DNA of 32,000 bases from Pyrodictium abyssi (GTDB lineage Archaea > Thermoproteota > Thermoprotei_A > Sulfolobales > Pyrodictiaceae). The translations under genes were made by a program, and so were the position numbers. Below are positions 1,665-20,988 of this stretch, piece after piece (position 1 is the first letter of the stretch; every line of letters begins with the position of its first letter). Under the pieces are notes generated by a model, which was not told the origin of the DNA, made no database searches, and saw only the letters and a list, made by a program, of their open reading frames with translations. The stretch is taken from assembly GCF_036323395.1 (NCBI RefSeq), contig NZ_AP028907.1:1170001-1202000 (forward strand), given 5' to 3'.

Positions 1665-2267
1665 GTGATACGCTACGGCGTCGGCAACATCTACAGCATC
1701 GTCTCGGGGCTGCGCCGCGCCGGCGCAGAGCCGGTGGTCGTGGACTGCCTCCGAGACCCCGGCGGGTGGGACGGCGTAGTCCTGCCCGGCGTCGGCGCCT
1801 ACGCGGCGGCCTCGATGAGGCTCCACCAGTGCGCCCAGGAGATACGCGAGGCGCTCCGGATGGGCGCCAGCCTCCTAGGCGTCTGCCTCGGCCTACAGCT
1901 GGTCTTCACGGATAGCCGCGAGGCGGGGGAGCACAGCTACGGGCTCAGCCTGCTACCCGGCACCGTGGAGAAGCTAGCAGCAGCCAAGCTGCCCCACATC
2001 GGCTGGAGCCGGGTCTACCGGGTCCCCGGCCGGGACTGCAGGCTCCTAGAGGGCGTGGAGGACGGGAGCCACTTCTACTACGTGCACAGCTACGCCTACA
2101 CCAGTGTCTGGGAGCCCTGGGTCTGCGCCGTCAGCCGCTACGGCGAGACAGTCTACGCGGCGGTCGTCGAGCAGCCGCCGGTCTACGCTACCCAGTTCCA
2201 CCCCGAGAGGAGCAGCCGCCTCGGCCAACGGGTGCTCCGCAACTGGGTCGCACTGCTCCGCAGCTAG
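1665..2267 (+). CDS. hisH: Imidazole glycerol phosphate synthase glutamine amidotransferase subunit
   Basis: The ORF is open from 1611, but the GTG at 1665, just after the hisE stop, gives the canonical N-terminus (V)IRYGVGNIYS. Motifs LPGVGAY, GVCLGLQL (nucleophile Cys), YYVHSY and QFHPERS are present. Confidence 0.9.
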   Translation: MIRYGVGNIYSIVSGLRRAGAEPVVVDCLRDPGGWDGVVLPGVGAYAAASMRLHQCAQEIREALRMGASLLGVCLGLQLVFTDSREAGEHSYGLSLLPGTVEKLAAAKLPHIGWSRVYRVPGRDCRLLEGVEDGSHFYYVHSYAYTSVWEPWVCAVSRYGETVYAAVVEQPPVYATQFHPERSSRLGQRVLRNWVALLRS

Positions 2268-2318
2268 CCCCGGCGCACCGACCGGTACACAGCCCATGCC
2301 ACACGGGGGATACCCGCC

Positions 2319-3116
2319 ATGGGGGAGGAGAAGGGCGGGGAGAGGAGGCTCATACCCGTAGCAGTGGTAGACGCTGTCACCGGCGAGCCCCTAATGCTAG
2401 CCTACGCCGACCAGGAGGCCCTAGACCTGACCAGGGAGACGGGCCTAGCCCACTTCTACTCCCGTAGCCGCGGCAGCCTCTGGCTCAAGGGCGGCTCGAG
2501 CGGCGGGCTCCTAGACGTGGTCCGGGTCCTAGGCGACTGCGACGGCGACGCAGCAGCCTACGTGGCCCGGCCCAGGCGCCACGTATGCCACCTGGGCCGG
2601 AGGAGCTGCTTCCACAACACGCTGCTCGACCGCCGCCGCGAGCTGCTCGAACAGCTGCTGGAGGAGACCCGGCCCCACACCAGGATCGATGGGGCCCGGG
2701 TGCTGCACCCCCTCGCCACCTGGGCGCCGCCCCCGCCGCCGCTCCTCACAGCGCTAGCAGCGGAGCTGCTGGCCGAGAGGATACGCTCCCGGGCAGGCCC
2801 AGGGCTCACAGCCGTGCTAGCGCCCGAGGGCCCTGGAGGCCTGCTCGCGCTCCTAGCAGCCCAGAAGCTGGCCGTACCCCTCCACCTGGCCCGCGGCGGC
2901 CGCGCCCCAGAGAGCATCGGCGAGACAGACCGCGTCGCGGTCTACGCGCCCAGCCCAGCCGAGACCCAGGAGCTCGCAGAAGAGGCGCAGAAACGAGGCG
3001 CCCATGTGGCGGCTGTGGCGGCCCTAGCAGCCCCCGCCGGCGGGGACACCGGGGGCGTAGACGTGCTCATACGGGCCGAGCATGGCCACCCACCACGCCT
3101 AAGGCTAGCACTCTAG
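2319..3116 (+). CDS. hisI: Phosphoribosyl-AMP cyclohydrolase (HisI) fused to a C-terminal degenerate type-I phosphoribosyltransferase-like domain
   Basis: The N-terminal ~105 aa (LIPVAVVD..GEPLMLAYADQEAL..THFYSRSRGSLWLKGGSSG..DCDGDA..C.LGRRSCFH) is HisI. The C-terminal ~150 aa (LTAVLAPEGPGGLLALLAAQKLAVPLHLARGG...RVAVYAPSPAETQELAEEAQKRGAHVAAVAALA) aligns by eye with the PRTase domain of the 21799-22527 protein. It lacks the acidic VDD..TG PRPP loop. Confidence 0.85.
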   Translation: MGEEKGGERRLIPVAVVDAVTGEPLMLAYADQEALDLTRETGLAHFYSRSRGSLWLKGGSSGGLLDVVRVLGDCDGDAAAYVARPRRHVCHLGRRSCFHNTLLDRRRELLEQLLEETRPHTRIDGARVLHPLATWAPPPPPLLTALAAELLAERIRSRAGPGLTAVLAPEGPGGLLALLAAQKLAVPLHLARGGRAPESIGETDRVAVYAPSPAETQELAEEAQKRGAHVAAVAALAAPAGGDTGGVDVLIRAEHGHPPRLRLAL

Positions 3117-5494: not shown

Positions 5495-6199
5495 TTGTCT
5501 AAGCGTTTCGAGCGCATGTATGCCCGGCTGGCCGTGCTCGCGGAGAGGATGGGCGTCGGGGATCTCCTCGGCCCGGTCGTGGAGAGGCTCGCGGCGCTCT
5601 ACAGCCGGGGCGTGCTGGGCGCGAGCCACGTGGTGCTCGAGCTCGTCGCCGCTGGGTGGCTCGCCCGCGAGGGCTACACGGTGTCGGTGGAGGAGCCTGT
5701 GGACGGGCTCATAGCCGACGTGGTGGCCAGGGCGGGGCGCGAGATGCTCCTGGTGGAGGTCGAGACGGGCTACACTCCGCCCCGGTGGAGCCACGCGCCC
5801 CTAGCCTACCACGCGGCCCGGCTAGCGGCCAAGACCGCCCGGTACAGCAGGCTCGGCGACAGATTCGCCCTCGCCTACCCCCTGGGCTACGCCGCGCCCC
5901 TGCACCCCGCGCTGCTCGAGCCCCCGTGGCGCCGGAGCCAGGGGATGCTAGCGGAGCTGAAGAGCCTGGTTGACCGGTTCTACAGGAGGCCACCCATACC
6001 CCTAGAAGCCTTCATGGATGCACGTCTCGACGCTGTGCTCCTCCTCGACCCAGACAACGCCGCGGCCTACTGGGCCCCGCCGAGCCACGCCCCCGGCCTA
6101 CAGGTGCTGGCGCTCCAGGCGGCGCTCTCCACCCTGACCAGCCCCGGCGGCGAGCCAGGCACCGCCAGCCCGGTGGCGGCTACCTCTGCGCCGTCCTAG
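5495..6199 (+). CDS. Hypothetical protein with a possible PD-(D/E)xK nuclease-like core
   Basis: 234-aa ORF with host-like codon usage (TTG at 5495 or ATG at 5516). GLIADVVARAGREMLLVEVETGY resembles a D...(E)xE/K restriction-endonuclease-fold core. The opposite-strand ORF 5213-5794 is R/P-rich shadow. Confidence 0.55.
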   Translation: MSKRFERMYARLAVLAERMGVGDLLGPVVERLAALYSRGVLGASHVVLELVAAGWLAREGYTVSVEEPVDGLIADVVARAGREMLLVEVETGYTPPRWSHAPLAYHAARLAAKTARYSRLGDRFALAYPLGYAAPLHPALLEPPWRRSQGMLAELKSLVDRFYRRPPIPLEAFMDARLDAVLLLDPDNAAAYWAPPSHAPGLQVLALQAALSTLTSPGGEPGTASPVAATSAPS

Positions 6200-7577
6200 C
6201 GGCTGCTGGCTCTATAACCCGGTTGTGGTGGAGCCACTCGAGGTCTACGGCTATATGGTGCTCCTCTAGTATTGGCTCGTCCAGCCCCCGGGCTACCAGG
6301 ACGTAGTAGTTCCTGGGCGAGGCTAGCCCGGTCTCGCCCGCCTTCTCCTCGAGCTTCTCTAGCGCTCGGCGCGCGTCGGCCCTGCTCAGCCGGGCCCACT
6401 TGGCCTCGATGAAGGCCGTTGCTCTGCCGGGGCTCCTCAGCACCAGGTCTATCTCCATGCCCCGGCGCCACCAGGGCCCCGCCTGCCGCGGCTCCAGGGG
6501 CAGAATGCCCCGCTCCACCATGCGGGCGGCCAGCTGCGGCACGATTGTCTCCTCGAACGCCCGCCCCATGTAGCTGTCTAGCTCCCCGAGTATGGCGCGG
6601 CGCGCCTTCTCCACGGCGCCAGACTCTATCAGGCTCCTCAACGGGAGTATGAAGCTGAACCAGAACCTGAAGAAGTTGTCTCTGAACCGTAGCTGGACGG
6701 GCCTCCTCCTGCCCAGGGGCCGCACCCTCCCCACCAGGTCCAGCTCCTCGAGGACCTCGATGTAGCGGCCGATACTCCTCGGGTCCACTCCCGCTGCCTG
6801 GGCGGCCTCGCTCGGCTCCACCCTGCCCTCGGCGACGGCCCGCAGCAGTGCAAGGTATGTGCGGGGCTCGCGCAGCTCCTGCCGTAGCAGCAGCACCGGC
6901 TCGTCGAGGAGCGGGCTCCCGGGACGAGTAGCCTCCTCTACGAGCTTCTCAGCGGAGGCGCCGGGCCCCAGGAGCGCTAGGTAGGCCGGTGTGCCCCCGG
7001 CTACCCCGTAGAGACGGGCAGCCTCCACAGCGGTAAGCCCTGGGTTGAAGCCCCAAGCCTCCCAGAACGCCATTGGGCGTAGCCTTAGCTGCCCAGTGCG
7101 GCGGCCGTAGAGCGGCGCCCTGTAGCCGAGCAGCCGCTTCTCGAAGAAGGAGACAGAGGAGCCACAGAGCACCAGCATCATCCCGGAGCCCTTGAGGGCC
7201 GTATCTATGCTCCTCATGAGCCGGCTCGGCAGCGAGGGATCAGCCTCCACAAGGTACTGGAACTCGTCCAGCACCACCACCAGCTTGCCGCCGCCCCGGT
7301 GGAGCCGGGCGAGGGCCTCCAAGACCTCGACAACGTCCCCGGCGACAGGGAGCCCCAAGGCCTCCTTCACCGCCAGGGAGAACTCCCGGGCAAGGCTCTC
7401 GTAGGGCAGCTCAGCAGCCACGTAGTAGACGCATGGCCTGCCGCGGCAGAACCAGCGCAGCAGAAACGTCTTCCCGACACGCCTCCGCCCATACACCACT
7501 AGCAGCCGGAAGCCCGGCTCACGGTACTCCCTTTCGAGGAGCCCCAGCTCCCTCTCCCGGTCAACCAGCACCTCCAC
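6180..7577 (-). CDS. Archaeal ATPase (Arch_ATPase/AAA) with a DUF234-type C-terminal domain
   Basis: 465 aa. DRERELGLLEREY....LLVVYGRRRVGKTFLLRWF (Walker A), LVVVLDEFQYL (Walker B) and a C-terminal GMEIDLVL...AFIEAKW (DUF234-like nuclease-fold tail). Confidence 0.9.
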   Translation of the reverse strand: MEVLVDRERELGLLEREYREPGFRLLVVYGRRRVGKTFLLRWFCRGRPCVYYVAAELPYESLAREFSLAVKEALGLPVAGDVVEVLEALARLHRGGGKLVVVLDEFQYLVEADPSLPSRLMRSIDTALKGSGMMLVLCGSSVSFFEKRLLGYRAPLYGRRTGQLRLRPMAFWEAWGFNPGLTAVEAARLYGVAGGTPAYLALLGPGASAEKLVEEATRPGSPLLDEPVLLLRQELREPRTYLALLRAVAEGRVEPSEAAQAAGVDPRSIGRYIEVLEELDLVGRVRPLGRRRPVQLRFRDNFFRFWFSFILPLRSLIESGAVEKARRAILGELDSYMGRAFEETIVPQLAARMVERGILPLEPRQAGPWWRRGMEIDLVLRSPGRATAFIEAKWARLSRADARRALEKLEEKAGETGLASPRNYYVLVARGLDEPILEEHHIAVDLEWLHHNRVIEPAAARTAQR

Positions 7578-7702: not shown

Positions 7703-8305
7703 CTAGCTCCGCGGAGGCAGAATAGCGCCCTTAGTGGACACTACGCCGCTGCTGGGCGACAGGGCCTGCCGCAGAGCCATGCCCAGCGCCTTGAAGGCCG
7801 CCTCGGCCACGTGGTGATCGTTCCCACCGCGGAGCGTGACCACGTGCAGGGTCATCCCGGCGGCCGCGGCCAGGCTCTGCAGGAAGTGCGGAATATTCTC
7901 CGTCGCTAGGCCCCCTATAGCCTCGCGGCGCAGGGGCAGCTCCACCCAGGCCCCAGGCCGCCCCGAGTAGTCCACAGCCACCAGCACAAGCGCCTCGTCC
8001 ATAGGCACCACAGCGTAGCCGAAGCGCGCTACCCGGTAGCCCCCAGAGGCCACAGCCCGGGCCACAGCCTCGCCCAGCGCCAGCGCCAGATCCTCAGCCA
8101 CGTGGTGGTCATCCACACGCTTAACCTCCTCCACGGCTGCGCGGAGACCCCAGCCAGCGTAGTACGCCAGAGTCTCCACCATGTGGTCCAGGAACGGTAC
8201 ACCGGTCGATACACTGGTCTCCCGCAGCTCCTCTCGGTCCAGGTCCAGGTCCACAATCACCCTGGTCTCCTTTGTCCGGCGCTCAACCTTTACCCGGCGA
8301 GCCAA
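7703..8305 (-). CDS. hisB: Imidazoleglycerol-phosphate dehydratase
   Basis: VERRTKETRV.VDLDLD, GVPFLDHM and DDHHVAEDLALALG. The ORF is open to 8407, but the first 34 codons are non-homologous. The TTG at 8305 gives a canonical ~200-aa IGPD. Confidence 0.9.
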   Translation of the reverse strand: MARRVKVERRTKETRVIVDLDLDREELRETSVSTGVPFLDHMVETLAYYAGWGLRAAVEEVKRVDDHHVAEDLALALGEAVARAVASGGYRVARFGYAVVPMDEALVLVAVDYSGRPGAWVELPLRREAIGGLATENIPHFLQSLAAAAGMTLHVVTLRGGNDHHVAEAAFKALGMALRQALSPSSGVVSTKGAILPPRS

Positions 8306-9034
8306 TACAGCACACCCGGGGCCACAGAGGCCAGGCCGCCGGGTAATAGGTCCAGGGGACGGCCCAGCCGTACACGCTGTCTCGAAACAGAGGCCAGGCA
8401 GGCGCACAGGTACACCAGCCCACAGGTAAGCACACCCAGCTAACTATAGCATGCCCAAAACAACACAGCACACGTACACCAGCAGCAGAACAAAACAGCG
8501 CAAGCTACAATATGCGACAAGGCATACAGTATACTTTACACCGGCACCGCTAGAGTCGCACTATATTGCAACTTATTATCAAGGGTGCTTATACTGGGCT
8601 TGTCTTACCTGTGCCCGGGCTTAGCTGTAGCCGGGCCCCGCTACATGTTACCCCAGCGTGCACCAGGCAAGCCAGGCGCTGTAACAGTGAGACCTCCGGT
8701 AGTTAGTTAAGGAGAACCAGGTATAGACGAATTGTATACTTTAGACGTGCGCCCGGCATATAAGTGGCAAACTGCACAGTAAAACTACATGGAGAACAGA
8801 TACGGAGAAAGGTTTGAGAGGTGAACCCGTCTGTGAACAAGCTCGTATACATACTCGTACCCCTAGCGGTCGCCGCGCTAGCAGCCGCAGGCTACGTCTA
8901 CCTAGGAGGCGGAGAAGCAGCCCCAGCGACACAGACAGCAGCCACCGCTGCGCCGGCCGCGACGCAGACAGCTGCACCCCGGGGCGCCCGGGCAGGGCCA
9001 CGGCCCCGGCGCCGGCGGAGGCCCGGCAAGGGGC

Positions 9035-9589
9035 GTGGCTACCAGCGTGCAGCAGCTCCCAGCGCAGCCGCTCTCCGAGGACGAGAAGGAGAGCCTACTC
9101 TACATGGTGGAGGAGAAGCTAGCCCGTGACGCATACAACAGGCTAGCCGAGATGTACCCCGACGTACCAGTGTTCGCCAACATAGCGAGGAGCGAGCAGC
9201 AGCACGTAGACTCCGTGATGCAGCTAATAGAGAAGTACGGGCTCGACGTAGAGCTAGGGCCGCCCGGTGTGTTCCACAACCAGGAGCTACAGAGCCTCTA
9301 CAACGAGCTAGTAGACCGCGGCTCCAAGAGCCTAGAAGAAGCACTGAAAGTGGGCGCACTGATAGAGGAGAAGGACATAGTAGACCTAGAGGAATGGCTC
9401 GCTAAGACCGACAACGAGGACATCAAGCTAGTCTACGAGAACCTAATGCACGGCAGCTTCAACCACCTATGCGCCTTCACAAGGACCATGAAAAGCATGC
9501 TAGGCGTAGACTACAAGCCAGTACTCCTCGACGAAGAGACATACAACAGCATCATATCCAGCTGCCAGATGGGCGGCCCCAAGCGCTAA
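9035..9589 (+). CDS. DUF2202 ferritin-like domain protein (possibly 5'-truncated by a frameshift; see findings)
   Basis: LSEDEKESLLYMVEEKLARDAYNRLAEMYPDVPVFANIARSEQQHVDSVMQLIEKYGL is the typical DUF2202 signature. GTG start at 9035. Confidence 0.8.
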   Translation: MATSVQQLPAQPLSEDEKESLLYMVEEKLARDAYNRLAEMYPDVPVFANIARSEQQHVDSVMQLIEKYGLDVELGPPGVFHNQELQSLYNELVDRGSKSLEEALKVGALIEEKDIVDLEEWLAKTDNEDIKLVYENLMHGSFNHLCAFTRTMKSMLGVDYKPVLLDEETYNSIISSCQMGGPKR

Positions 9590-10121
9590 AGGAATACAGA
9601 GAGAACACAGCCCCAGGGCACAACCCCCTACACAGCACCAACACCCCGACACACGCCACACGCATGAACGTATTTTCTCGCCCCAGGCAGGGACAAGCCC
9701 TCTGCCAGACACCACAGCGAGCGTTAGTGTTACCGTATTCAGTTAGCCTCGGAATACAGCATCTATGGGCAATGTCAGGTCAACGGATTGACCCAAGGTC
9801 TTCGCTGTCACTAAGAATTGATGACAGAAAGGTTAAGTACATGCAGTCAGGCAAGTGATAATCAATAGAGCTGACGGGAGAGGCCTATCCTGTTACAGTC
9901 CTGCATCATGTTAAATACTTTGGCGGGCTGAGAATGCTTTAGGATTTAGTAAAGCATGAATTGAAGCCACCGTCAAATGGACAAAGTGAGATTCAGAGAG
10001 CAAGCATGAAGCTCGTTGCGGGAATTACGGAATCAACAAATTTAGTTGTTTATGAAGTAAGGCGTGTTGAAACGCAGTGTAATTGATTGCTACTATGTGG
10101 CTGAGAATGATTAGACAGAGT

Positions 10122-11129
10122 CTAATTCTCTGCTATGTTATTTGGATGCTGTTTAAGCGATTCTACTAGCTCTTTCACCTTTTGCCAGCATAGGTATTCT
10201 CTCGACAGTCTAGCCAGTTCATTATCTATGTTGGCTACTTCTTTCCAGTCCACACAGCGCAAATATTGGTCATTAGCTAAATCTATGGAAAAGACCCTTA
10301 GGACAAGATATGTGATTATTCCACTGACATCGATAAACTTGTTGAGGTATTTCAGCAGGTATTCGGGAACGGGTTCAAGTTCTATCCAATCCCTATAGGT
10401 AGCAATTCTAGCACCCGTCTCCAAGAATCTGGGATGAACACGGTGTGCATGTCCAGAGAGTTCGCTGTAATAGTCATGTATTATTTTAAAAAGATGGCCA
10501 TCTATAATGCCCCAGTTCTTTAACTGTTCTAGAAGCTTGGCGAATGCAGCACTTGGATTAAAATCTGTCAGCTTACTTTCCATTAAGTCAAACAAGTATG
10601 CTGATGGTACAATTCTACTATCTCCTATTTCTTTCTCGATAAGCTCTAGCAGCTCTTTAAAGCTCTTAGCAGCTTTAAAGCCATTTATCTTCTTCAGATT
10701 CACTGCATTCTTACGGTATTGCGGTATTGCCAGTAGGTCAAAGATTATGCCACGGATAACACTCTCTAGCGCATTACGCAGTTCGCTGAAAGCTACACTG
10801 TAATAGCCTGTAAGAGCTGATAGAAGAGAATACCTCATAAGCATTACAGCATCATAATGATAGACTATTAGTGCTGTATGTAGTTGCCAAAACTCGTTGA
10901 AGATCTCCTCGTTGCATACATTTTTTGAAGGCATAAGACCAACAATTAATTCTCCAGAGCTGTTCATTGCACTCATTAAGTTATCAATTATCTCAGCCAC
11001 GCTCAACGTGCTATAAACCGATGGTAAAGCCTCAATATTATCGCTCACTTTGCTAATGTGAGTGCTCATATTTTTTGAATATGTATAGTACAAAATCGGT
11101 AATTCGTGCAAGCTTACGTAAAGTTTCAT
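10122..11129 (-). CDS. Hypothetical helical protein, a distant member of the same family as 12304-13038 and 13255-14037 (HEPN/DUF4145-like, tentative)
   Basis: 335-aa AT-rich ORF. It shares two blocks with the paralogs: LTGYYSVAFSELRNALESVIRGIIFDL and GIIDGHLFKIIHDYYSELSGHAHRVHP. Compare ALRQILEAITIAVYMD and YGLLSSYIHPF in the 13255 protein. Confidence 0.6.
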   Translation of the reverse strand: MKLYVSLHELPILYYTYSKNMSTHISKVSDNIEALPSVYSTLSVAEIIDNLMSAMNSSGELIVGLMPSKNVCNEEIFNEFWQLHTALIVYHYDAVMLMRYSLLSALTGYYSVAFSELRNALESVIRGIIFDLLAIPQYRKNAVNLKKINGFKAAKSFKELLELIEKEIGDSRIVPSAYLFDLMESKLTDFNPSAAFAKLLEQLKNWGIIDGHLFKIIHDYYSELSGHAHRVHPRFLETGARIATYRDWIELEPVPEYLLKYLNKFIDVSGIITYLVLRVFSIDLANDQYLRCVDWKEVANIDNELARLSREYLCWQKVKELVESLKQHPNNIAEN

Positions 11130-11467
11130 CCTCGTTCTTATTATTGTTACTCCGTAGCTCCACAGCTATCCCTAAGCTCTTTATAGACAACCAAGAAGCT
11201 ATATTTAAATTTTATAGTATAATTTCCTCGATTACTCTGTAAAAGGGCTCATACAAGGACAAGGGATGACCGTATAATGGTTCCGTATAATGATAGGAAA
11301 CCACGAGACACTTAGTCTGACGCTTTAGAGTCCATAATCTGCAGAATCTAGCTCTATGCACGATACGTCGGTAACCGGGATGAGCTTGAATGAAATAGCC
11401 CTGTAAGAATCCAAGAAGCTAGATATCAGCTTACAAGCACTTCATGTTATAATGATTGGCGTGATTC

Positions 11468-11983
11468 TTATAATGAGCTTTTTATCCTTAACGCTGGCCC
11501 TAATTGATAGCACATTATAATTCTTCTCGAGTTGTCTAGCATGATTTTTAGGGTGATAATGTTGAGGGCTTTCCTGGAGGCAAGTAATGTCCCAGCCAGC
11601 AGGCTGGCTAGGAGGAGTTTAGCAGCCGTTTGGATGTAGCTGGCCTTTTCTACTAGCTGACTATAGGCTTCTGGTCGAAGACGCCGTGCTACATTGTCTA
11701 CGAGATGTTGTGCTACATGCTCGTCGAGGACCAGAGCGCTAGAATAGAGTGCCCTCATAGCATAGCTTTTGCCGGTATTCGGTGGGCCTAGGGGCAGGGT
11801 CACGTCTCCTAGCGATAGCTCTGCGCTTCGGACGGGGCCGAAGTTCTCTAGGATAAGCTTCACTGGAGGTTCCCCTGCATATAGCCGCTGCACTCCTAGC
11901 CCTACCGGGCAGGGGCGACGCCCTATCAGCCTACCGTCACGCTCACAGCATGCCATTCTCCTGGGCGGTACATGAGACAGCAT
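11468..11983 (-). pseudogene. N-terminal relic of a P-loop (SMC/ABC-like AAA) ATPase
   Basis: VKLILENFGPVRSAELSLGDVTLPLGPPNTGKSYAMRAL is the N-terminal strand plus Walker A of an AAA_15/21/23-type ATPase. The ORF stops after ~170 aa with no Walker B or signature motif downstream. Its 5' part is distinctly GC-richer than the surrounding island. Confidence 0.5.
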
Positions 11984-12303
11984 AAGCAGAAACCTTCTAA
12001 GGGTACATGAGGAGCGACTATCCTGTAGCTTGGGTTATTGCCCTTCTCAGGGCCGTCTCAGAGGACTGGTACCTAACTAAACATGGCTCTAATCTATGCC
12101 TAGCTCCTTGCTTGGCCCCGACAACAGTCAGCCGGCCAAGTGCGAACCGTAGCCTGATTCCCGGATGATGGGCGGGCTTAATTTGCGGGACTTTTTTATA
12201 GCAGATCCTGGCAACTGGTAATGAAACGGATGAGATGCATGCATGAGATAATGTTGGTAAGGCTGAGCACTTAAGGGATGTATCCGATGAGCTTGATTCA
12301 CTT

Positions 12304-13038
12304 GTGGAAATGGAGTATGGGCTTGTATGGGCTGCATGCAAGTATGGTCTAGAGAATTTCAAGTACGCGGCGAGGAATGCTCGTGGGTTTATTCAGTCTT
12401 GTAGCGAGCTATCGGATACAGTTGAAGAGGTCTTCATGAAGTATTTTGTTGATATCGAGGATAACCTAGTAGGGGAGACTGTAACGCCTGCGGCACTACT
12501 CTACGTTATCGTGCCTCTAGGGTTTTTGTCCTATGTTTGCACGGTGGCTCTTCATGGCGCGTTGCCTTATGCAGCGGCTGGCCTAAGGCTTATTGTTGAA
12601 GCATTAACACTATCAGTATATGTTGATACTAAGTTTCCGGATAAAAGCTATGAGGAAAAACTAGACCTAATGTCAGAGAAGTATAATACATTTAGTGCCG
12701 TTGCTGAGGAGCTAAGAAGGTATGCAAAGATAGATAATAGACTTATAGATGACGTTATTACTGTATGGCGTGAAACATCAGCCTATCTCCACTTTGTTAA
12801 TCGTGCCCGAAGGGCTGGTGCGAAAGGCATACTCCGCCTAGTCGAGAAATATGTAGAGGAGCACGGTGCTCCTCCAAGCGGCTTCACTATACCGTTGCCA
12901 ACAGAGTTCCTCTTCGAGCATGATGCCAAGGAGCTAAGAAGGCTGGAAGAACTAATTAGATTAGTTACCAAGATTGTGCCTGGACTCCTTGAAGCCTGGG
13001 CAAGAACGCTCAGAGAGCACAGAGCTGGAGCTAACTAG
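12304..13038 (+). CDS. Hypothetical helical protein, paralog of 13255-14037 (HEPN/DUF4145-like, tentative)
   Basis: 244 aa. It is clearly alignable to the next gene: FMKYFVDIED / FLKYFVYIEE; LSYVCTVALHGALPYAAAGLRLIVEALTLSVYVDT / PGYVCTSILQAAIPLAYFALRQILEAITIAVYMDT; WRETSAYLHFV / YGLLSSYIHPF; EEHGAPPSGFT / DEHGIPPTFAT. Confidence 0.7.
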   Translation: MEMEYGLVWAACKYGLENFKYAARNARGFIQSCSELSDTVEEVFMKYFVDIEDNLVGETVTPAALLYVIVPLGFLSYVCTVALHGALPYAAAGLRLIVEALTLSVYVDTKFPDKSYEEKLDLMSEKYNTFSAVAEELRRYAKIDNRLIDDVITVWRETSAYLHFVNRARRAGAKGILRLVEKYVEEHGAPPSGFTIPLPTEFLFEHDAKELRRLEELIRLVTKIVPGLLEAWARTLREHRAGAN

Positions 13039-13284
13039 TTCTCCTATTCTTGGTTATGGCCGGAGACCGATACTGGATAACATCGGTGGTTGCAGTTACA
13101 AGTGAGTTTGTTGAAGAGTCACTGAGAAGAACTTGATTGATGCAAGCGTGTTATTCACTGTGTAGCTAGTCTCTAATAGCTGATAGGCTGATAGTATGTA
13201 TTGTGAAAAATATAAATAGATAAGAATGCTAGCTAGATACTGTCAAGCCGTGAAGTGTATACATGGCTGGAGGGATCTGATGGG

Positions 13285-14037
13285 ATGAAGTTAAAGGAGG
13301 AGCGTGGGGAGTTTGAGCAATTGAAGCGCTTTTACGTTGAGAATAGCTGCGAGGTAGCGCATAGTAACTTTAACTACATCCTTAAGATTGATAAAGGCTT
13401 GATCATAGCCTGTGACGAGTTCTATGAAATATGCATAGAGTTGTTTCTCAAGTACTTTGTATACATAGAGGAAAGTATAAAGGGAATCGACCCGGAGACA
13501 TACTTTAAGAGATATCTCCTGCCCTCCGTGCTTTTCTACATAGTAGCGCCGTTTCCTGGCTATGTGTGTACAAGCATACTCCAGGCCGCAATACCCCTTG
13601 CATACTTTGCGCTTAGGCAGATACTTGAGGCAATTACAATAGCCGTGTATATGGACACATGTCCGAGGTACAAGAACCTAGACTATGAAAGAAAGGCAAG
13701 GGAGGCCAGAAGGCTCACATTCTCTGATACACTTGGCTACTTTGAGCGGATAGACAGAGGACTCGCAGAGAACCTCAGAAGACTCTACGGTCTCCTCTCG
13801 AGCTACATACATCCCTTTGCCAGGAAGGGCCTGGGAGGTCTTGTGAGCCTTGCCGACAGATCGCTAGACGAGCATGGTATTCCTCCAACCTTCGCAACTG
13901 CATTTGCATTATCAAAATACACGGGAGGTAAGGCCGACGAGACTGAGCTTGCCAGGTTAAAGAAAACGATATATGAGACAGCTAGGCTAGTCATAGAACT
14001 AATAAACGTATGGCTCATGTACATTGCCAGAGGGTAA
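13285..14037 (+). CDS. Hypothetical helical protein, paralog of 12304-13038 (HEPN/DUF4145-like, tentative)
   Basis: The ORF is open from the GTG at 13255. The ATG at 13285 is preceded by GGAGGG. An AAAATATAAATAG TATA-like box lies at ~13209-13221. Paralogy evidence is given for the previous feature. Confidence 0.7.
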   Translation: MKLKEERGEFEQLKRFYVENSCEVAHSNFNYILKIDKGLIIACDEFYEICIELFLKYFVYIEESIKGIDPETYFKRYLLPSVLFYIVAPFPGYVCTSILQAAIPLAYFALRQILEAITIAVYMDTCPRYKNLDYERKAREARRLTFSDTLGYFERIDRGLAENLRRLYGLLSSYIHPFARKGLGGLVSLADRSLDEHGIPPTFATAFALSKYTGGKADETELARLKKTIYETARLVIELINVWLMYIARG

Positions 14038-14062
14038 CTGCAGAAAACGGGACTGGCATAGT

Positions 14063-15034
14063 TTATATCAGAAAGGTGTGCAGTTCCACGGATAGGTTTC
14101 TTGCTGCTAGGTCTACAGTATCTATTCGTCCCTCGGCTATCAGTTCTAGTAGCTTTTCAGCTGTTAGCTTAGCTTTATCTTCTCTTGTTATCCTCCTAGC
14201 AGCTTCTAGGATTGGTTTTAGGTTATCCTTTGAGAGCGTATGTATTGCTTCGCGTGCCTCTTCTTCAAGATTTTCTCGCAGAGCTCTTGCTAGTAGCTCT
14301 GTCGGTGTTTTGCCGTCTGTGCGTACTATTATTACTGCTATGGGTTTGTCCCGATGATGTCTTGCCAGTAATTTTGCGTAGCGTGCTGCCTGTAGTAATG
14401 GATTATGGCTCGCCGTTGCTATAGTTCCTTCCTCGGGAGTCTTTATTTCAAAAACTACTGCCATGCCAGTACAGTCTACATAAAGGTCTAGCCTTGCTCC
14501 AGTCGCAAAGTAGTGCTCCAAGTTTACAGTTTCACAGTCGGGAGGAAGTAAACTGCAAAGAACATGTTTTAACGCCTCCTTGAATGTCTCTCCGTCAAGC
14601 CTTAGAGTGAAGAGTGTGTCCAAGATTATTATGAGCTTTTCTGCGGTATTGTCTGAGGGTATTAAACTGAGTAGCTGCCCTACATGTGCCGCTACGTCTG
14701 TAGGACTTATTCCCGTCGAATACTGCATAGTATGATGTTGACTTCTGCATCTTACTGTAAGTGCATCCCAAGGTATGCTATCGTAGTGTTGCAGCCTCAT
14801 CACTTTGAGTCCTCTAACACTATGTCTAACAATGTAGGCTTTCCATTTCTCCTCAAGCTTTTCAGCAGCTTCAGGACTTATTGTCTCTACTTTCCTTACT
14901 ATGTTTCTATAGGTCTCTAGGGGCACGCAGACCAAGTCACCTACGTTCTCGCCTAACGATGATAGGATTATCTCAGACAGTGCGAGGTAGAGGGCTGTTT
15001 TGTCAACCGTTTTCCGCCTCGTTTTCCTCCTCAA
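14063..15034 (-). CDS. PD-(D/E)xK nuclease-fold protein with a basic N-terminus and a helical C-terminal tail
   Basis: 323 aa. The TTG start lies 4 nt after the stop of the upstream gene and is preceded by GGAGGT. The core is E173-H..ARLD183LYVD186...VVFE196IK198, followed by LLQAARYAKLL and PIAVIIVRTDG. This order is typical of PDDEXK/Rpn-like nucleases. The N-terminus is MRRKTRRKT. Confidence 0.7.
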   Translation of the reverse strand: MRRKTRRKTVDKTALYLALSEIILSSLGENVGDLVCVPLETYRNIVRKVETISPEAAEKLEEKWKAYIVRHSVRGLKVMRLQHYDSIPWDALTVRCRSQHHTMQYSTGISPTDVAAHVGQLLSLIPSDNTAEKLIIILDTLFTLRLDGETFKEALKHVLCSLLPPDCETVNLEHYFATGARLDLYVDCTGMAVVFEIKTPEEGTIATASHNPLLQAARYAKLLARHHRDKPIAVIIVRTDGKTPTELLARALRENLEEEAREAIHTLSKDNLKPILEAARRITREDKAKLTAEKLLELIAEGRIDTVDLAARNLSVELHTFLI

Positions 15035-15038
15035 GCGC

Positions 15039-16367
15039 TCATACCTCCGAGGCTATTTCGTTGGCGATTTTTGTCTTGGTAAGCTGTATAGAGTCCCTTA
15101 GTGGTTCGAGGAGAAGGCTTCTGATTTCCTCTCTAATCCGGCTTTCAGACATACTTGAGTAGGTGAACATGGAGAGATTAAGCATGTTTATGCCAAGATA
15201 GTTGTAAGTTGAGTTATTTATAGCTAAGCTTCTAGTCTCGGCCGGCACAGCGCCTACTATTAGATCAAGATCGAGTCCATTGCGTGGCAATCTGAGGGAG
15301 AAGAATGTTATTTGGGGCGTTCCCTTGGCCTCAAGATCGTTAAAGAATTCGTCAGGATCCTTGTAGTTTAGTAGTTGCGCTGCTACTTCTTCTGCTGACA
15401 CCTTTCTATCAGGACCTATTATGCCCCCATACGCTATTATACGATACTTTATCCCACTCACGCGAAGTACAACAGCTTTGCCGCCACGCCTTTTTACTTG
15501 ACCGTATAGGGCTTTCGCCAGCCTATTGGGGCCAATAGCGTTTATAACATCATAACCTGTTAACGTATCTACATCCCTGTTACTAGCATAACGTATTATC
15601 GCTTGAAACGCTGCTGTGAACGTTCTAACTTGTTTGGTTATAATACTTGGCCCATACAAGCGGACCTCTATTCCGCTTATATCGCTATTTGGACTCACTA
15701 AAGCTATTCCAGCAGGCTGGTAGCTTGTGAAACGTATGCTCGGGGAGCTAAGATTTAGAGTCCCTCCTATCGACACTCCAAGGTTTACCACACGTAGAGA
15801 TCCTGAAGCAAGCAGAAGTGGTATCCAATCTCGTCCTCCCACTCTTATATAGGGGCTATCTCGTCTAGTTAAGGGTAGAATCCATAAATTAGTGCCCCTA
15901 TAGCTATACATGAAGCCTCTCTCATAAACTACTAATGCAGCCCTTCTATCTACTTGTCTATTTGTAACGAGCTCTCCTCTATTAACCTCAAATTCCAGCC
16001 TTGTGCTATCAACGGGTTTAAGCGTTGCCTCGTTGCTCGGGAGTATACCTGCAACCATATCATCTATAAGCTCGCTAGGTCTAGCGTTTTGAGGAAATAA
16101 GAATACTATACGCCCTCTTGAATAAAGGTTAAGTTCCTGATTATTCTTAATATCGTCAACTATACTTTGTATGAGGTCCTCTTGGTGTATCTTTCCAAGA
16201 CACTCATACCTACCAAGAGGCCTCTTTTTAATTGATGTATAGCAGTCAGCTAGCTGTTGCAAAGTCTTGGTGGGAGTGGCTTGTTGCAGAAACACATAGT
16301 AGGGTATAGCGTCTGCAGAGAACTTCCTTATTGTGCTGGACATGCCTACCCCTATAGTGGCTAACAC
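15039..16367 (-). CDS. Unknown beta-rich protein; candidate divergent, catalytically inactive short Argonaute (MID-PIWI-like). This is a hypothesis from motif order only.
   Basis: 442-aa ORF from the GTG at 16367; the ATG at 16343 gives 434 aa. An ATATATAAT TATA-like box lies at 16378-16386. Ordered motifs (aa numbering from 16367):
- YYVFLQQ (23-29).
- RIVFLFPQ (86-93).
- ILPSN (108-112).
- RGTNLWIL (157-164; compare the PIWI motif K-L-G-G-x-x-W-x-L).
- NLGVSIGGT (195-203).
- AVVLRVSG (298-305; compare the hRDG strand, which is HVSG in Archaeoglobus Piwi).
There is no P-loop and no DEDX set. Confidence 0.45.
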   Translation of the reverse strand: MLATIGVGMSSTIRKFSADAIPYYVFLQQATPTKTLQQLADCYTSIKKRPLGRYECLGKIHQEDLIQSIVDDIKNNQELNLYSRGRIVFLFPQNARPSELIDDMVAGILPSNEATLKPVDSTRLEFEVNRGELVTNRQVDRRAALVVYERGFMYSYRGTNLWILPLTRRDSPYIRVGGRDWIPLLLASGSLRVVNLGVSIGGTLNLSSPSIRFTSYQPAGIALVSPNSDISGIEVRLYGPSIITKQVRTFTAAFQAIIRYASNRDVDTLTGYDVINAIGPNRLAKALYGQVKRRGGKAVVLRVSGIKYRIIAYGGIIGPDRKVSAEEVAAQLLNYKDPDEFFNDLEAKGTPQITFFSLRLPRNGLDLDLIVGAVPAETRSLAINNSTYNYLGINMLNLSMFTYSSMSESRIREEIRSLLLEPLRDSIQLTKTKIANEIASEV

Positions 16368-16448
16368 TATAGGTGAGATATATAATGCTGCAGTACTATT
16401 GAGCCAGCTAGGCCAACTAAGGCGTCTCTAAGTTCCATAGCACCATAA

Positions 16449-16679
16449 TCATCGCATGCATCTACTACCATCCCCTAGAAGCCTCATGGTGGTTTGATCG
16501 AGGCTTACCAGCTCGAGTCTGATTCTCTTCCTGTCTAGCTCGTATTCTCTTGTTGCCTCGGCTTCGTCGGGGAGGGGTTCATCTACGCCTAGAAGCCTTT
16601 CCTCTAGCAGGGCCTCGATCCGCTTCAGCGTAGCCTGGAGACCGCGTATCTCCTCTAGTAGCTGTTTCTCTACAGACAA
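16449..16679 (-). CDS. Small coiled-coil protein (antitoxin-like archaeal family), uncertain
   Basis: 76 aa with a TTG start. LLEEIRGLQATLKRIEALLEERLLGVDEPLPDEAEATREYELDRKR..ELVSL resembles small archaeal helical proteins that end in a ...vsLeel motif. It is GC-richer than its neighbours. Confidence 0.4.
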   Translation of the reverse strand: MSVEKQLLEEIRGLQATLKRIEALLEERLLGVDEPLPDEAEATREYELDRKRIRLELVSLDQTTMRLLGDGSRCMR

Positions 16680-16789
16680 GCTACTAGGGCACCCCGTTGC
16701 TACGGTATGAGCAGGCTCTGGGGGCGGTTAAGCTGCTCCTTCTATCTTCACGTCCTGGCCTCTAGCCTTAGGGAAATACATGGAAACAA

Positions 16790-17545
16790 TTAGAGCAGCC
16801 TAACTATAAACGAGTCCAGGTCTGTGTCCTCCAAGCCGTCTTGTATGCCTGCTATCAGCTCCCGCAGCATAGCCCTCCATGCCGGGTCAGCATTGTCTAT
16901 AAGATGCTTCACCTTCTCCACCACAACTGTCACTCCAGCCTCCTTCACATTTCTTGGCAACTCTCCTTCAACTACCTCATGGCAGTGCTTTCTCACGTCT
17001 TTATCACAGTATTCTACACTAGTAATGGGACTTCTCGGCACTACTAGTGCTATCCAGCATTCCGCACTACATTTCCACGACGCTATGCATATCTTAGGTC
17101 TGTCAGGCCGCCTAATACATAGTGACGCAAAGTACTTACCTCCGTGCTGTATTGGTTGAACTTCTTTATCCTTCTTGTTTCTCACAATGATCTCTTGTAT
17201 GATTTTCCAAAGTCTTTGATAATACTCGTTTGCCCTATCAGTAGGCCTATCTGAATCGCTATCCACTATTACCGCCAGACACACTTCTGCATTAGGGACA
17301 GACCGAATGAATGCTTCAGTGGCTTTAATTATTTCTTTCGTGGCATCCCTTACATTCTTTATCCCTCCGGCTGGATATATAGCAATGCATCCTGCATCGA
17401 GGAAGCATTCCCACATGTATTCTTTTATTTCTTCTATGTTACTGGAATAGTAGAGGTCATAGTTATCCGAGACCGCAGCACCTAAGAGATAGACGTCATA
17501 CAATCCCTCTGTTACTATGATCGCGTATTTACAGCCACTTAGCAA
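16790..17545 (-). CDS. TOPRIM-like (DUF4435/OLD-type) putative nuclease, partner of the upstream ABC ATPase
   Basis: 251 aa. The TTG start is preceded by AGGAGGTG, 36 nt after the ATPase stop. The pattern AIIVTEGLYDVYLL (TOPRIM Glu) ... IYPAGGIKNV ... LAVIVDSDSD (DxDxD) matches the DUF4435/OLD TOPRIM layout. Confidence 0.65.
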   Translation of the reverse strand: MLSGCKYAIIVTEGLYDVYLLGAAVSDNYDLYYSSNIEEIKEYMWECFLDAGCIAIYPAGGIKNVRDATKEIIKATEAFIRSVPNAEVCLAVIVDSDSDRPTDRANEYYQRLWKIIQEIIVRNKKDKEVQPIQHGGKYFASLCIRRPDRPKICIASWKCSAECWIALVVPRSPITSVEYCDKDVRKHCHEVVEGELPRNVKEAGVTVVVEKVKHLIDNADPAWRAMLRELIAGIQDGLEDTDLDSFIVRLL

Positions 17546-17581
17546 CGCTATGCACCTCCTGCTATGCTATTGACTAGGGAG

Positions 17582-19183
17582 CTATATGCCGCGCAACTCT
17601 ATACCTATTTCCTTTGCCTCTAAGATCTCTCTGCCCTTAAATACTGAGTATACCTCTCCGTTCGACATCAAGACAGTCTTAACCTTGTCGAGAACACCAT
17701 GCCTCATAGCTCTTTTGGCGATAAAGCGTATCAGCTCCATGCTATGAGTGCTGAGCAACACAAGAGCACTAGGATTCTCTTTAGTAGCTCTCGCTATGCT
17801 ATCTGCAAGTACCATTAAGTAGCCTGGGTGGAGTCCAGTCTCGGGCTCTTCAAGGATAAGTACTGTCTGGGGCTGCCTCCTAGCTAGAACTAGACCTGCT
17901 AGCAAGGCTAATAGCAGCAGGGTACCATCGCCGAGTAACGCTGCAGGTATTCTCATACCGTCCTTTCTCAGAAGGACTTCATTCTCTTTAATGATAGGAT
18001 CCTCTAGATTGAGACTTCTGATGCTTCTAATAACGTTACCATAGTCTCTAAGGAGTCCAAGATCATGAACTTTGTCTACTATTTTCTCTAAGGTATTTGC
18101 GCCAAAGATTTCATGGCGGATAACAGTACTTCTTCGAAATACTGTGTAAACATTCCATTCCGTCTTTTCATTGGCCTTTCCATCGTTGAGGTTTACTCTG
18201 TACTGTGCTGTCCATAAGTTATCTATAGTCCTTCTCAGTTTCTTCCATATACACCGCCTAATCATTTTTCCTAGTTCTTTACCTAGCTGGAGCTTAGCGT
18301 AGACTGAATATAAGTCTTTTAATTCAGCTCTCTCTAAGATTATCCCTGTCATATTTATTATGTTACGTACGAAGACTGCTTCAAGATTACTAAGTTCTTC
18401 GTAGTATTGTTTCTCCTTGCTTACACCCATTCTAAAGCGTGGCAAGTATAAGTAGGATGATCCATTCAGCTTTATAACTATGCTATCATCTATGATTGGC
18501 CTAATTATCCTGTTGACATGCTCCCTTAGGGTTAATGCTGCAGATTTTAGGGCAGGCTCACTTTTGTATATACTTCTCGCTAAACTTTCTGGAAGCAATA
18601 TAGGTTGTACTATTTTTTCTATCGATAACCTTTCTTCACAAGTTGATTCTGCAAGATGAGCTATAATGTACCCTATAGTGAACATTATCGTTGTTAACGC
18701 TTCACCCTCTCTAGTGTAGCTAGCAAAGGCTTTTCTGAGACATCTGTATGCTTCGCCTTCACTTGTCAGCTCATCGTAGAGGCTTTCTCTGATTTTTTGA
18801 AGCATCATACATAGGAATTGATTATTTATTGTGCTATTTGGCTTAGCTATCCTTACTATTCGGGCGCCTTGGTCATCCATCTTGAGATTTAGATTTATGG
18901 TTGCCTCTTCTCTGCATGTCAAGTTCAATAGCCTACTTGGGTGCCCAGCGAGCTTGTCGTCTATTATCATGCGGGCTATGTCGTTGCCGAGCCAGTCTTG
19001 TAGGCTAGGTGCTGAGAATGCGAGGGCTAATGCCTCGAGGACTGAGGATTTGCCGGCGTTATTCCTGCCGGTGAGTATAGTTATCGGAGCCAGCTCTAGC
19101 TTAACCTCTTTTACTCCTCTGAAGCACTTGATCTTGGCTACGCCAATAGGGCTATCCTGCTTGGTCTCTTTTGCTTGCTCCAT
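17582..19183 (-). CDS. ABC-type AAA ATPase of the AAA_15/AAA_21 (OLD N-terminal / AriA / RloA-like) family
   Basis: 533 aa. Walker A TGRNNAGKSSVLEAL, a long helical insert, a signature-like LLGDGT, Walker B VLILEEPETGLHP and H-loop LLSTHS. Confidence 0.9.
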   Translation of the reverse strand: MEQAKETKQDSPIGVAKIKCFRGVKEVKLELAPITILTGRNNAGKSSVLEALALAFSAPSLQDWLGNDIARMIIDDKLAGHPSRLLNLTCREEATINLNLKMDDQGARIVRIAKPNSTINNQFLCMMLQKIRESLYDELTSEGEAYRCLRKAFASYTREGEALTTIMFTIGYIIAHLAESTCEERLSIEKIVQPILLPESLARSIYKSEPALKSAALTLREHVNRIIRPIIDDSIVIKLNGSSYLYLPRFRMGVSKEKQYYEELSNLEAVFVRNIINMTGIILERAELKDLYSVYAKLQLGKELGKMIRRCIWKKLRRTIDNLWTAQYRVNLNDGKANEKTEWNVYTVFRRSTVIRHEIFGANTLEKIVDKVHDLGLLRDYGNVIRSIRSLNLEDPIIKENEVLLRKDGMRIPAALLGDGTLLLLALLAGLVLARRQPQTVLILEEPETGLHPGYLMVLADSIARATKENPSALVLLSTHSMELIRFIAKRAMRHGVLDKVKTVLMSNGEVYSVFKGREILEAKEIGIELRGI

Positions 19184-19369
19184 AGCCCTCCCACTCCACC
19201 TACAGGCTACAATGCATTATACCGTTTCAAAACCATGAGTGTCGATGCCGGGTTCGATACCGTGAGCTTTCGGCTGTGGAGGGTTCATAGCTGTACTGGT
19301 CTTTGCGGCTCTTAAGTACCCTGCCCGGGAATGTGTGGCGTTGCTGGTGCTCGGGGTCTTTTGCAGTCT

Positions 19370-20118: not shown

Positions 20119-20988
20119 CTAGGGTATCACCCTGTCCACGCTGAGCACTAGTATGTCGCGGGCGCCGCGCCGCCGGGCCTCGACGAGGACGTGGGCTAGC
20201 CTGTCCTCCGGCACCACTGTTATCACCTCCCACATGGGCCGGGGGCCCTCCACCCTGGCTATCGTGGGCCCCGACATCGAGGGGAGCGCCTCTACTACGC
20301 GCTGTAGGGCCTCCTCCGGCACGTTCATGAGTACTAGCTTGTAGCCCCGGGCCCGTAGCACGCTCCTCACAGCCTCGACGATGACCTCTACGAGGGGGTC
20401 CTCTGGGTCTACGTGGCTGCCCCGGATCAGCTTGGCCTCTGTCCGCATGACCTCGGCTACTACGCGTAGCCCGTGCAGCCTAAGTGTGGTCCCGGTCGAG
20501 GATACGTCGAGTATGGCGTCTGCCACGCCGAGCCTGGGCATGGCCTCGGCGGAGCCTGTTATCCTGATTATCCTCGCCCTGACCCCTAGCTTCTCGAAGA
20601 ACCTCCGGGCTATGTTGACGAACTTGGTCGCCACCCGGACCCCGTCGGGGAGGTCTCTTGGGCTCTCCACCGGCGCCTCCTCGGGCACTGCTACCACGAG
20701 GCGGGCGCGGCCGATGCCCAGGCCCTCGACTATCTCCAGGCCCTCGCCGCTGTGCTCCTCTATGTAGTCGAGCCCCGTGATGCCGAGCTCTGCGCCGCCC
20801 GCAGAGACTATCGCCGGTATGTCCTCGGGCCGGACGTAGACCAGGGACACGTTCTCCCAGTTCGTGGGCACTATCAGCGCGCGGGTCGCGTCGGGGCTGT
20901 AGAGGGGCTCTATGCCCGCAGCCTCTAGTAGGCGGAGCACAGGGTCCCTTAGCCGGCCCTTGCTGGGAACCGCTATCCTCACACCCAC
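20119..20988 (-). CDS. hisG: ATP phosphoribosyltransferase (long form)
   Basis: 289 aa with a GTG start. RIAVPSKGRL..P.L.LLE.AGI, the central PRPP-binding region (DVSSTGTTLR) and a C-terminal regulatory-domain-sized tail. Confidence 0.95.
   Translation of the reverse strand: MGVRIAVPSKGRLRDPVLRLLEAAGIEPLYSPDATRALIVPTNWENVSLVYVRPEDIPAIVSAGGAELGITGLDYIEEHSGEGLEIVEGLGIGRARLVVAVPEEAPVESPRDLPDGVRVATKFVNIARRFFEKLGVRARIIRITGSAEAMPRLGVADAILDVSSTGTTLRLHGLRVVAEVMRTEAKLIRGSHVDPEDPLVEVIVEAVRSVLRARGYKLVLMNVPEEALQRVVEALPSMSGPTIARVEGPRPMWEVITVVPEDRLAHVLVEARRRGARDILVLSVDRVIP

Follow-up and report, generated by a model that had tools for sequence, protein, structure and literature searches.

Three related genes in a low-GC island of Pyrodictium abyssi define an archaeal superfamily of helical proteins with a possible HEPN-like character

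The 32,000-nucleotide stretch of the genome of the hyperthermophile Pyrodictium abyssi analysed here (the window) carries three open reading frames (ORFs), of 335, 244 and 260 amino acids (aa), which raise two questions: are the three genes related to one another, and what might their products do? A preliminary description, made from the DNA letters and the translated ORFs, had presented them as three paralogs of one unannotated helical family recalling the HEPN superfamily of ribonucleases (RNases). We found the ORFs at the coordinates and on the strands described there, and we found that they belong to one undescribed superfamily of helical proteins. This superfamily is restricted to archaea and consists of two families: family A (~340 aa), which includes the 335-aa protein, and family B, which includes the 244-aa and 260-aa proteins encoded in tandem. 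A HEPN-like nature is the best available hypothesis for the superfamily, not an established one, and we give it a probability of about 0.4.

The relationship within family B is the simplest to describe. The 244-aa and 260-aa proteins align with each other, as had been noticed from the sequence (BLASTP, 32% identity over 233 residues, expectation value (E) 2e-31), and on this comparison they are true paralogs. To collect the family, we searched 1.84 billion representatives exhaustively with HMMER, using a two-sequence profile of the tandem pair; only 40 proteins reached E <=1e-3. Our family B alignment, A3, contains 31 sequences; members are about 230-290 aa long, and those with names are all archaeal (Hecatellales, Nanoarchaeota, Nitrososphaerota and Thermoprotei assemblies). 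The 244-aa protein matches the A3 hidden Markov model (HMM) at E ~1e-66. The product of the 260-aa ORF is listed at NCBI as a Pyrodictium abyssi hypothetical protein of 250 aa, which would fit an ATG start at codon 11 (nt 13285).

The origin of the tandem arrangement was also considered. The nearest relative of the 244-aa protein is P0033 (41.5% identity) and that of the 260-aa protein is P0031 (47%), both from other samples, whereas the two tandem copies share about 31-32% identity with each other. Because each copy is more similar to an outside relative than to its neighbour, the pair is not the result of a recent diversifying duplication: a mutual identity of 31%, against 47% and 41.5%, rules out recent tandem duplication. 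The diversifying duplication that had been suggested for this locus is therefore doubtful. The sequences indicate that the tandem is old, or was put together from two acquisitions.

Linking the 335-aa protein to the tandem pair required more sensitive methods. Pairwise BLASTP comparisons of this protein with the two tandem proteins were not significant (E 0.045 and 1.1). Thus, motif resemblance alone is no proof of kinship. We found 28 homologs of the 335-aa protein, mostly of ~340 aa and 40-52% identical, and these make up the family A alignment, A2. The homologs are from Thermoprotei/Desulfurococcales metagenomes, and those with names come from Staphylothermus, Desulfurococcaceae and Thermoprotei assemblies. 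When A2 and A3 were compared profile to profile, hhalign returned a probability of 92.8% and E 4e-7 over 98 columns, which correspond exactly to the two motif blocks that the preliminary description had recognized in the 335-aa protein. The A3 HMM, in turn, finds every tested family A member, with E from 2.5e-6 to 8.5e-3, in local databases of ~1,800 ORFs. These databases held the ORFs from all fetched loci and served as an empirical control; the best unrelated ORF scored E 0.81 (1,776-ORF run). Additionally, the spacing of the conserved residues is identical in the two families, with R-x3-E-x8-D on one helix followed by S-x3-H ending a later helix. The profile match, the HMM control and the identical spacing together show that the kinship of the three genes is real and far beyond chance. 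Still, families A and B share only ~20% identity. The word 'paralog' is appropriate for the tandem pair but too strong for the 335-aa protein, which belongs to a separate, distantly related family.

The residues of the shared motif are almost completely conserved. In family B the R, E, D and H are present in 31 of 31 sequences and the S in 30 of 31; in family A the corresponding figures are 27-28 of 28 and 27 of 28. The Arg/Glu helix and the His that had been singled out in the three window proteins are conserved in all wider homologs as well. Numbered in the 260-aa protein, the residues invariant in the 31 sequences are R121, E125, D134 and H186. Arg and His are spaced 65 residues apart in the superfamily core, and the consensus before the His is Y/W-x2-L-S-x3-H (S, L/T, x, x and Y/W at the successive positions), with no Arg. 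Each family has conserved elements of its own: family A keeps LEPVPEEL, and family B keeps G-x-PPSY, a Tyr and, at the C-terminus, a Trp. We merged the cores of the two families into one profile, A6; a further large search with this profile added just a few unannotated members.

The family A gene of the window is split by a one-base frameshift at a run of six A (11072-11077), and its N-terminal 45 codons lie in a short ORF in another frame (Table 1). The peptide encoded there fits the N-terminal EELRKVAHxxDFxxYLI that all homologs have kept, and the short ORF matches the A2 HMM at E 0.012. Removing one A from the run joins the two frames and restores ...DFVLYIFKNMSTHISK...; the remainder of the 335-aa ORF is intact and keeps all motifs. 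The frameshift could reflect a pseudogene, a homopolymer sequencing error or a slippery tract.

What kind of proteins are these? The view that they are helical was borne out by structure prediction. AlphaFold2, run with the family alignments, gave confident and entirely helical models for family B (260-aa protein; predicted local distance difference test (pLDDT) 92.8, predicted template modelling (TM) score 0.89) and for family A (pLDDT 88.7, predicted TM score 0.87). In both models the R, E and D share one helix of 23-24 residues, with the Asp at its C-terminal end, and a variable helical insert comes next. The Ser ends the next conserved helix, and the His stands just after that helix in family B or is its last residue in family A. 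The proteins are also unannotated, as had been stated: Pfam, NCBIfam, PADLOC and PHROGs gave no significant match for the three proteins, for all members or for subgroup consensus sequences, and PDB sequences yielded no match to the full-length profiles. The idea that a hydrophobic helix pair might span a membrane or form a pore was rejected: a single stretch is hydrophobic, the invariant charged residues lie within it, and charge is high elsewhere in the protein.

The layout of the conserved residues can be compared with that of HEPN proteins. The HEPN survey takes as defining features a four-helix up-down core, inserts that separate helix 2 from helix 3, an acidic residue conserved in helix 2 and frequently seen as E-x3-[KR], and an Rx4-6H motif located where helix 3 ends and in the loop after it; PaREP1/8 (archaeal, tandem arrays) and c2405 are HEPN families that have the His without the Arg (PMC3710099). 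The helix order and the variable insert of our models are compatible with such a core. An invariant Glu lies on the long helix that precedes the His (E122-x3-R126 in family A and R121-x3-E125 in family B), and the invariant His lies at or just after a helix end. Sub-threshold Pfam matches include the HEPN-clan models DUF4145, HEPN_AbiU2 and HEPN_Cthe2314.

The superfamily was also compared with the RnlA/LsoA toxins. When A6 was searched against 177,635 PDB sequences, the top match was the HEPN RNase toxin LsoA (5hy3; E 0.02, query 27-96 on LsoA 236-299), and LsoA was again the top match for the family-B-only core (E 0.036). The A6 alignment pairs the invariant R and E with LsoA R243 and E246, which we take to be catalytic residues of the RnlA/LsoA family. 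Furthermore, when A6 was compared by hhalign with a three-sequence RnlA/LsoA profile, both motifs were included in the 75 columns matched, at E 1.1e-3. The LsoA match is the one positive HEPN signal, borderline and below significance. The R-to-H spacing is similar as well (67 in LsoA against 65), the alignment runs from the R243/E246 helix to just before R305-x4-H310, and RnlA/LsoA proteins are, as those of the superfamily would be, encoded by anti-virus or toxin genes on mobile DNA. The superfamily differs from RnlA/LsoA in having R-x3-E in place of R-x2-E and no Arg before the His, and in lacking the RnlA N-terminal domains and an adjacent RnlB/LsoB-type antitoxin. In the plasmid RnlA loci that we fetched, the full-length toxin is 346-366 aa (two ORFs in Desulfotalea) and an annotated RnlB/LsoB antitoxin gene comes next in four of five; no such partner is found beside the window genes or their relatives in the loci examined.

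Several results weigh against a HEPN-like nature. No HEPN-clan model is significant in Pfam, NCBIfam or PADLOC, and none reaches its gathering score in Pfam. There is no Arg 4-8 residues upstream of the invariant His, so the Arg of the Rx4-6H motif is absent. With Foldseek, nothing below E 0.2 came up when both models were searched against the PDB and the family B model also against BFVD; the sole HEPN structure that Foldseek listed, 1ufb, was at rank 42 with E 3.7 and a TM score of 0.44 on the target. The LsoA signal is itself uneven. LsoA was not found when the family-A-only core was searched against PDB sequences, and when the RnlA profile was grown to six sequences the hhalign score fell (probability 2.5%, E 0.019). 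In the hhalign result, as in an ungapped reading, the His of the family meets LsoA H306 rather than H310 of the R-x4-H motif. The runner-up PDB matches include the proteasome subunit Rpn6 (LRQALEARLVSLYFDT) at E ~0.5, and the R-x3-E...D helix can therefore be matched by chance. Lastly, no conserved antitoxin-like partner was seen among the loci compared. Over the DUF4145 and RnlA profiles together, P was only 0.001-0.02. For calibration, the accepted HEPN families DUF4145 and RnlA reach only E 0.14-0.31 against each other with similarly small profiles; thus, profiles of this size are too insensitive to decide the matter. In sum, the HEPN resemblance that had been proposed remains a lead: the motif topology is consistent with it and the LsoA match (E 0.02-0.036) points to it, but no HEPN-clan match is significant and the motif Arg is absent.

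The narrower proposal, membership in DUF4145, did not hold. We built a local DUF4145 profile from 10 annotated plasmid proteins, retrieved with a consensus sequence. DUF4145 proteins are stand-alone HEPN proteins whose genes adjoin those of recombinases and restriction-modification systems. They resemble the superfamily in size (~180-290 aa) and in being encoded by solitary genes beside integrases or relaxases, and the two have in common a G-x-x-P/A...L-x-R-x3-E helix, which reads ALNGGIPSAVATLARRTLEG in DUF4145 and LLGAIPxAxxxLRxxLEA in the superfamily. The second motif is different: in the alignment of the 10 proteins it is R-x2-G-N-x3-H, whereas the superfamily has Y/W-x2-L-S-x3-H without the Arg, Gly or Asn. 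Comparison of the DUF4145 profile with the family profiles by hhalign gave probabilities of 2-8% (P 0.004-0.02) and covered only the R-x3-E helix, never the His motif, and in the reverse search with the DUF4145 HMM the family stayed in the noise; the latter result also tells against the broader HEPN assignment. In Pfam, DUF4145 (PF13643) matched one member of each family at a best E of 0.2, and the family B consensus at 6.8 bits (E 9.3), compared with a gathering score of 23.1 bits. A DUF4145-like protein that is a neighbour of family A at a related locus (L044) scored ~0 bits against the family profiles. As the first helix alone matches, the reverse search is negative and this neighbour shows no similarity, we rejected membership in DUF4145.

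That neighbour deserves a description of its own. It is a 216-aa archaeal protein, encoded at 1919-2569 (-) of its locus and convergent to the family A gene, with a textbook ...VRGWRNYAAH... motif; it scores 22 bits against our local DUF4145 profile, and it matches no Pfam HEPN-clan model at E <=1.

Other HEPN or defence families were compared in the same manner. By description, PaREP1 proteins (HEPN-T clade) are like the superfamily in being archaeal (crenarchaeal), small and helical, in having a His without the motif Arg, in occurring in tandem paralog arrays, and in having conserved basic residues elsewhere (PMC3710099). Pfam PaREP1 matched no member at E <=10, and the PaREP1 structure 2q00 was absent among the 50 Foldseek PDB matches listed for each model. 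PaREP1 proteins are also much shorter than superfamily members. The best sub-threshold Pfam matches that span the whole core are to DUF6988 and DUF5677, all under the 27-bit cut-off: DUF6988 (PF22491) matched one family B subgroup consensus only (E 2e-3, 18.3 bits; protein 86-179, profile 11-105), and DUF5677 (PF18928) matched two members at E 0.028 and the family A core at ~12.7 bits (E 0.14). Both are unannotated families recently linked to defence, and neither has a known fold or function. A DUF6988-like protein is the product of gene 3 of the validated Escherichia coli defence system DS-15 (PMC13092281). We rejected a link to DUF6988 through this DS-15 protein, since hhalign against A3 and A2 gave no signal (probability 0.1-0.2%). 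The best non-member match to the core profile (E 0.11) is a hypothetical protein encoded on a Vibrio plasmid at 1355-1999 (+) of locus L023, downstream of two genes, one for a HEPN and one for a DUF4145 protein; this match, which lies on an ELRNLVEGLYEADFND helix, is probably due to chance.

Based on these comparisons, we tentatively propose that the three proteins are single-gene effectors of the abortive-infection or toxin type, each of them a metal-independent endoribonuclease that is HEPN-like but strongly diverged; the fold, the RNase chemistry, the dimerisation and the defence role are features that we infer. According to this model, HEPN helix 2 would have its counterpart in the long helix that bears the invariant R-x3-E(-x8-D), and the variable segment of 30-90 residues after it would be the usual insert between helices 2 and 3. 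The invariant His that ends the next conserved helix, or starts the loop, would be the catalytic His (the base) of the Rx4-6H motif. The missing motif Arg may have been replaced by the invariant Arg of helix 2, or by basic residues after the His, where family A has HR and family B often has H-x3-R/K. The Arg/Glu pair of helix 2 would complete the active site. The proteins would have to dimerise to be active, as is the case for HEPN RNases in general, and infection or stress would set that activity free. The genes would be carried on mobile defence islands of hyperthermophilic archaea.

The genomic setting of the three genes is consistent with such a role. All three lie in a low-GC (guanine plus cytosine) island that splits the histidine-biosynthesis gene cluster of P. 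abyssi (Table 1).

Table 1. Positions of the three superfamily genes and of the features around them in the window
Feature	Position	Strand	Basis or remarks
Family A member, 335-aa ORF	10122..11129	-	Core helix LRNALESVIRGIIFD at nt 10737-10781; LSGHAHRVHP at nt 10431-10460
Displaced N-terminal piece of family A gene	11053..11190	-	Other reading frame; encodes ETLRKLARITDFVLYIF
Family B member 1, 244 aa	12304..13038	+	LRLIVEALTLSVYVD at nt 12583-12627; TSAYLHF at nt 12775-12795
Family B member 2, 260-aa ORF	13255..14037	+	LRQILEAITIAVYMD at nt 13612-13656; LSSYIHP at nt 13795-13815
Low-GC island with all three family genes	9800..19350		Composition profiles: 44.6% GC vs 65-67% in flanks
Truncated AAA_15-type defence ATPase, N-terminal P-loop fragment	11468..11983	-	Between family A and family B genes
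Five-ORF cluster	14063-19183	-	Pfam/PADLOC scans of ORFs
hisD	92-1363		Pfam
hisB	7703-8407		Read by eye from ORF
hisG	20119-20988		Pfam

This island is horizontally acquired and of the defence type; no flanking direct (att-like) repeats, transfer RNA gene or integrase were found for it. The expectation that ATPase genes would be close by was confirmed, as the island encodes a defence-like AAA_15/AAA_21 ATPase and a truncated second one. The truncated ATPase matches PADLOC PDC-M47A (E 5.9e-8), PD-T4-4_A (E 8.4e-8) and Pfam AAA_15 (E 1.3e-3), and it covers only profile positions 2-82 of ~460. Just the first ~130 ATPase residues survive, and the upstream 41 codons of the ORF resemble non-coding read-through. 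This truncation is a sign of erosion in that part of the island. An operon link between family A and this truncated ATPase was rejected, for it is absent in every other locus examined. The five-ORF cluster to the right encodes a 533-aa AAA_15/AAA_21 ATPase, which is AriA/AbiL/HEC-01-like (E ~1e-22), a 251-aa protein with weak PDC-M38B matches that is a possible partner of this ATPase, a 76-aa ORF, a 442-aa protein with no match whatsoever, and a protein of 323 aa whose matches to PD-(D/E)XK are weak. The cluster probably represents a defence system of several genes that is as yet uncharacterised.

Relatives of the three genes are found in comparable places. Each family member stands alone between intergenic spacers of its own, the neighbourhoods or islands around it vary, and most members come from hydrothermal metagenomes. 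One lies near PIN/RHH toxin-antitoxin pairs, a GIY-YIG protein and an AAA_14 ATPase (L007), another near a DNA methylase, a HerA-like ATPase and a resolvase (L010), and those of three further loci (L015-L017) near tyrosine integrases. At L019, a family B gene lies near a ParB / PAPS-reductase / BrxC-D-like cluster, with a third type of superfamily gene ~7 kb away, and at L044 a family A gene is accompanied by a degraded family B remnant and by the convergent DUF4145-like gene. Divergent superfamily members thus co-occur at least two further times (L019 and L044), which suggests that superfamily genes tend to gather in the same kind of hot spot. An all-against-all BLAST of 22 related loci and the window island revealed no conserved partner gene beyond overlapping antisense ORFs. 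A scan of 2.9 million viral contigs, of limited sensitivity, turned up no close relative, and tblastn of consensus sequences against plasmids gave no match.

The third, shorter type of superfamily protein at L019 (9220-9699, +) is 153 aa long, contains LLRTSLE...FSKAIH and matches the A6 HMM at E ~7e-6. The family B remnant at L044 (2650-3015, +) is a degraded C-terminal portion that lies 0.8 kb from the family A gene and still matches the A3 HMM at E 6e-12; after the window, it gives another instance in which families A and B occur side by side.

The same evidence has to be weighed with other explanations in mind. The three proteins might have a new all-helical enzyme fold unrelated to HEPN, for example that of a metal-dependent hydrolase or nuclease with Glu, Asp and His as ligands and Arg for the substrate, and serve an accessory, defence or mobile-element role. 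This would account for confident models that have no structural neighbour (both models against the PDB, the family B model against BFVD), for the finding of no significant sequence link to any described family, and for the conserved elements of families A and B that go beyond any HEPN core; the invariant E + D + H set also resembles a mononuclear metal site. Helical periodicity, however, should place D134 on another face of the helix than R121 and E125, and a joint E/D/H site is not obvious. Moreover, the best, borderline sequence signals all favour HEPN families with the same helix aligned, and a His at or after a helix end with an insert before it is the HEPN arrangement. We consider an unrelated enzyme fold unlikely. 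We would be similarly hesitant to regard the superfamily as a structurally new effector enzyme specific to hyperthermophilic archaea, which would use R-x3-E-x8-D and S-x3-H as an active site of its own and form a single-gene defence or toxin module independent of HEPN.

It is also conceivable that no catalysis is involved and that the proteins have a structural, regulatory, sensor or anti-defence function in integrated elements; the part of R/E/D/S/H would then be to support folding, through salt bridges and helix capping, or to bind a partner. Integrases and a resolvase do adjoin the genes at several loci, the long N- and C-terminal helices are typical of coiled-coil or oligomerisation scaffolds, and the i/i+4 Arg-Glu pair could form an intrahelical salt bridge. 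We nevertheless find this quite unlikely: five polar residues that stay invariant across families at ~20% identity look more like an active site than a scaffold, and the viral contigs, within the sensitivity of that scan, contained no close relatives. Finally, the three genes of this genome could be decaying relics of an eroded island, with no present function. The frameshift in the family A gene, the adjacent AAA_15 ATPase cut to its first ~130 residues and the degraded family B remnant beside a family A gene at L044 are what such decay would look like, but both family B ORFs are full length with every invariant residue intact. A sequencing error in the homopolymer could also explain the frameshift, and apart from it the family A ORF is undamaged and has all its motifs. 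We think it very unlikely that the genes are relics.

The interest of these genes lies partly in where they come from. Hyperthermophilic archaea have repertoires of defences and toxins that are still poorly mapped, and bacterial profile libraries such as PADLOC and Pfam miss most of them. The DUF4145-like protein at L044, which has an RNxxxH motif and is unseen by Pfam, is an example of this poor coverage of archaeal HEPN proteins. If the HEPN-like model is true, the superfamily would be a new branch of small, thermostable HEPN proteins with a rearranged active site; it would extend the rules by which HEPN proteins are recognized and could yield heat-stable RNases. If the model is wrong, the superfamily would represent a new fold with an unassigned catalytic set in defence islands. 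The present outcome is the definition of a family, with two alignments, motifs and confident models, together with a hypothesis on function that we infer from them.

Some other features of the window were noted. An archaeal ATPase_2/DUF234 gene at 6180-7577 also lies within the his cluster. At the left edge of the island, where GC content is intermediate (~54%), a DUF2202 (ferritin-like) protein is encoded at 9035-9589 (+). The end of the window, at 30.8-32 kb, is occupied by a second low-GC patch (38% GC), which includes a gene for a 358-aa protein at 30874-31950 (-) with a weak ParA/MinD-type (CbiA) match; this patch may be another foreign insertion.

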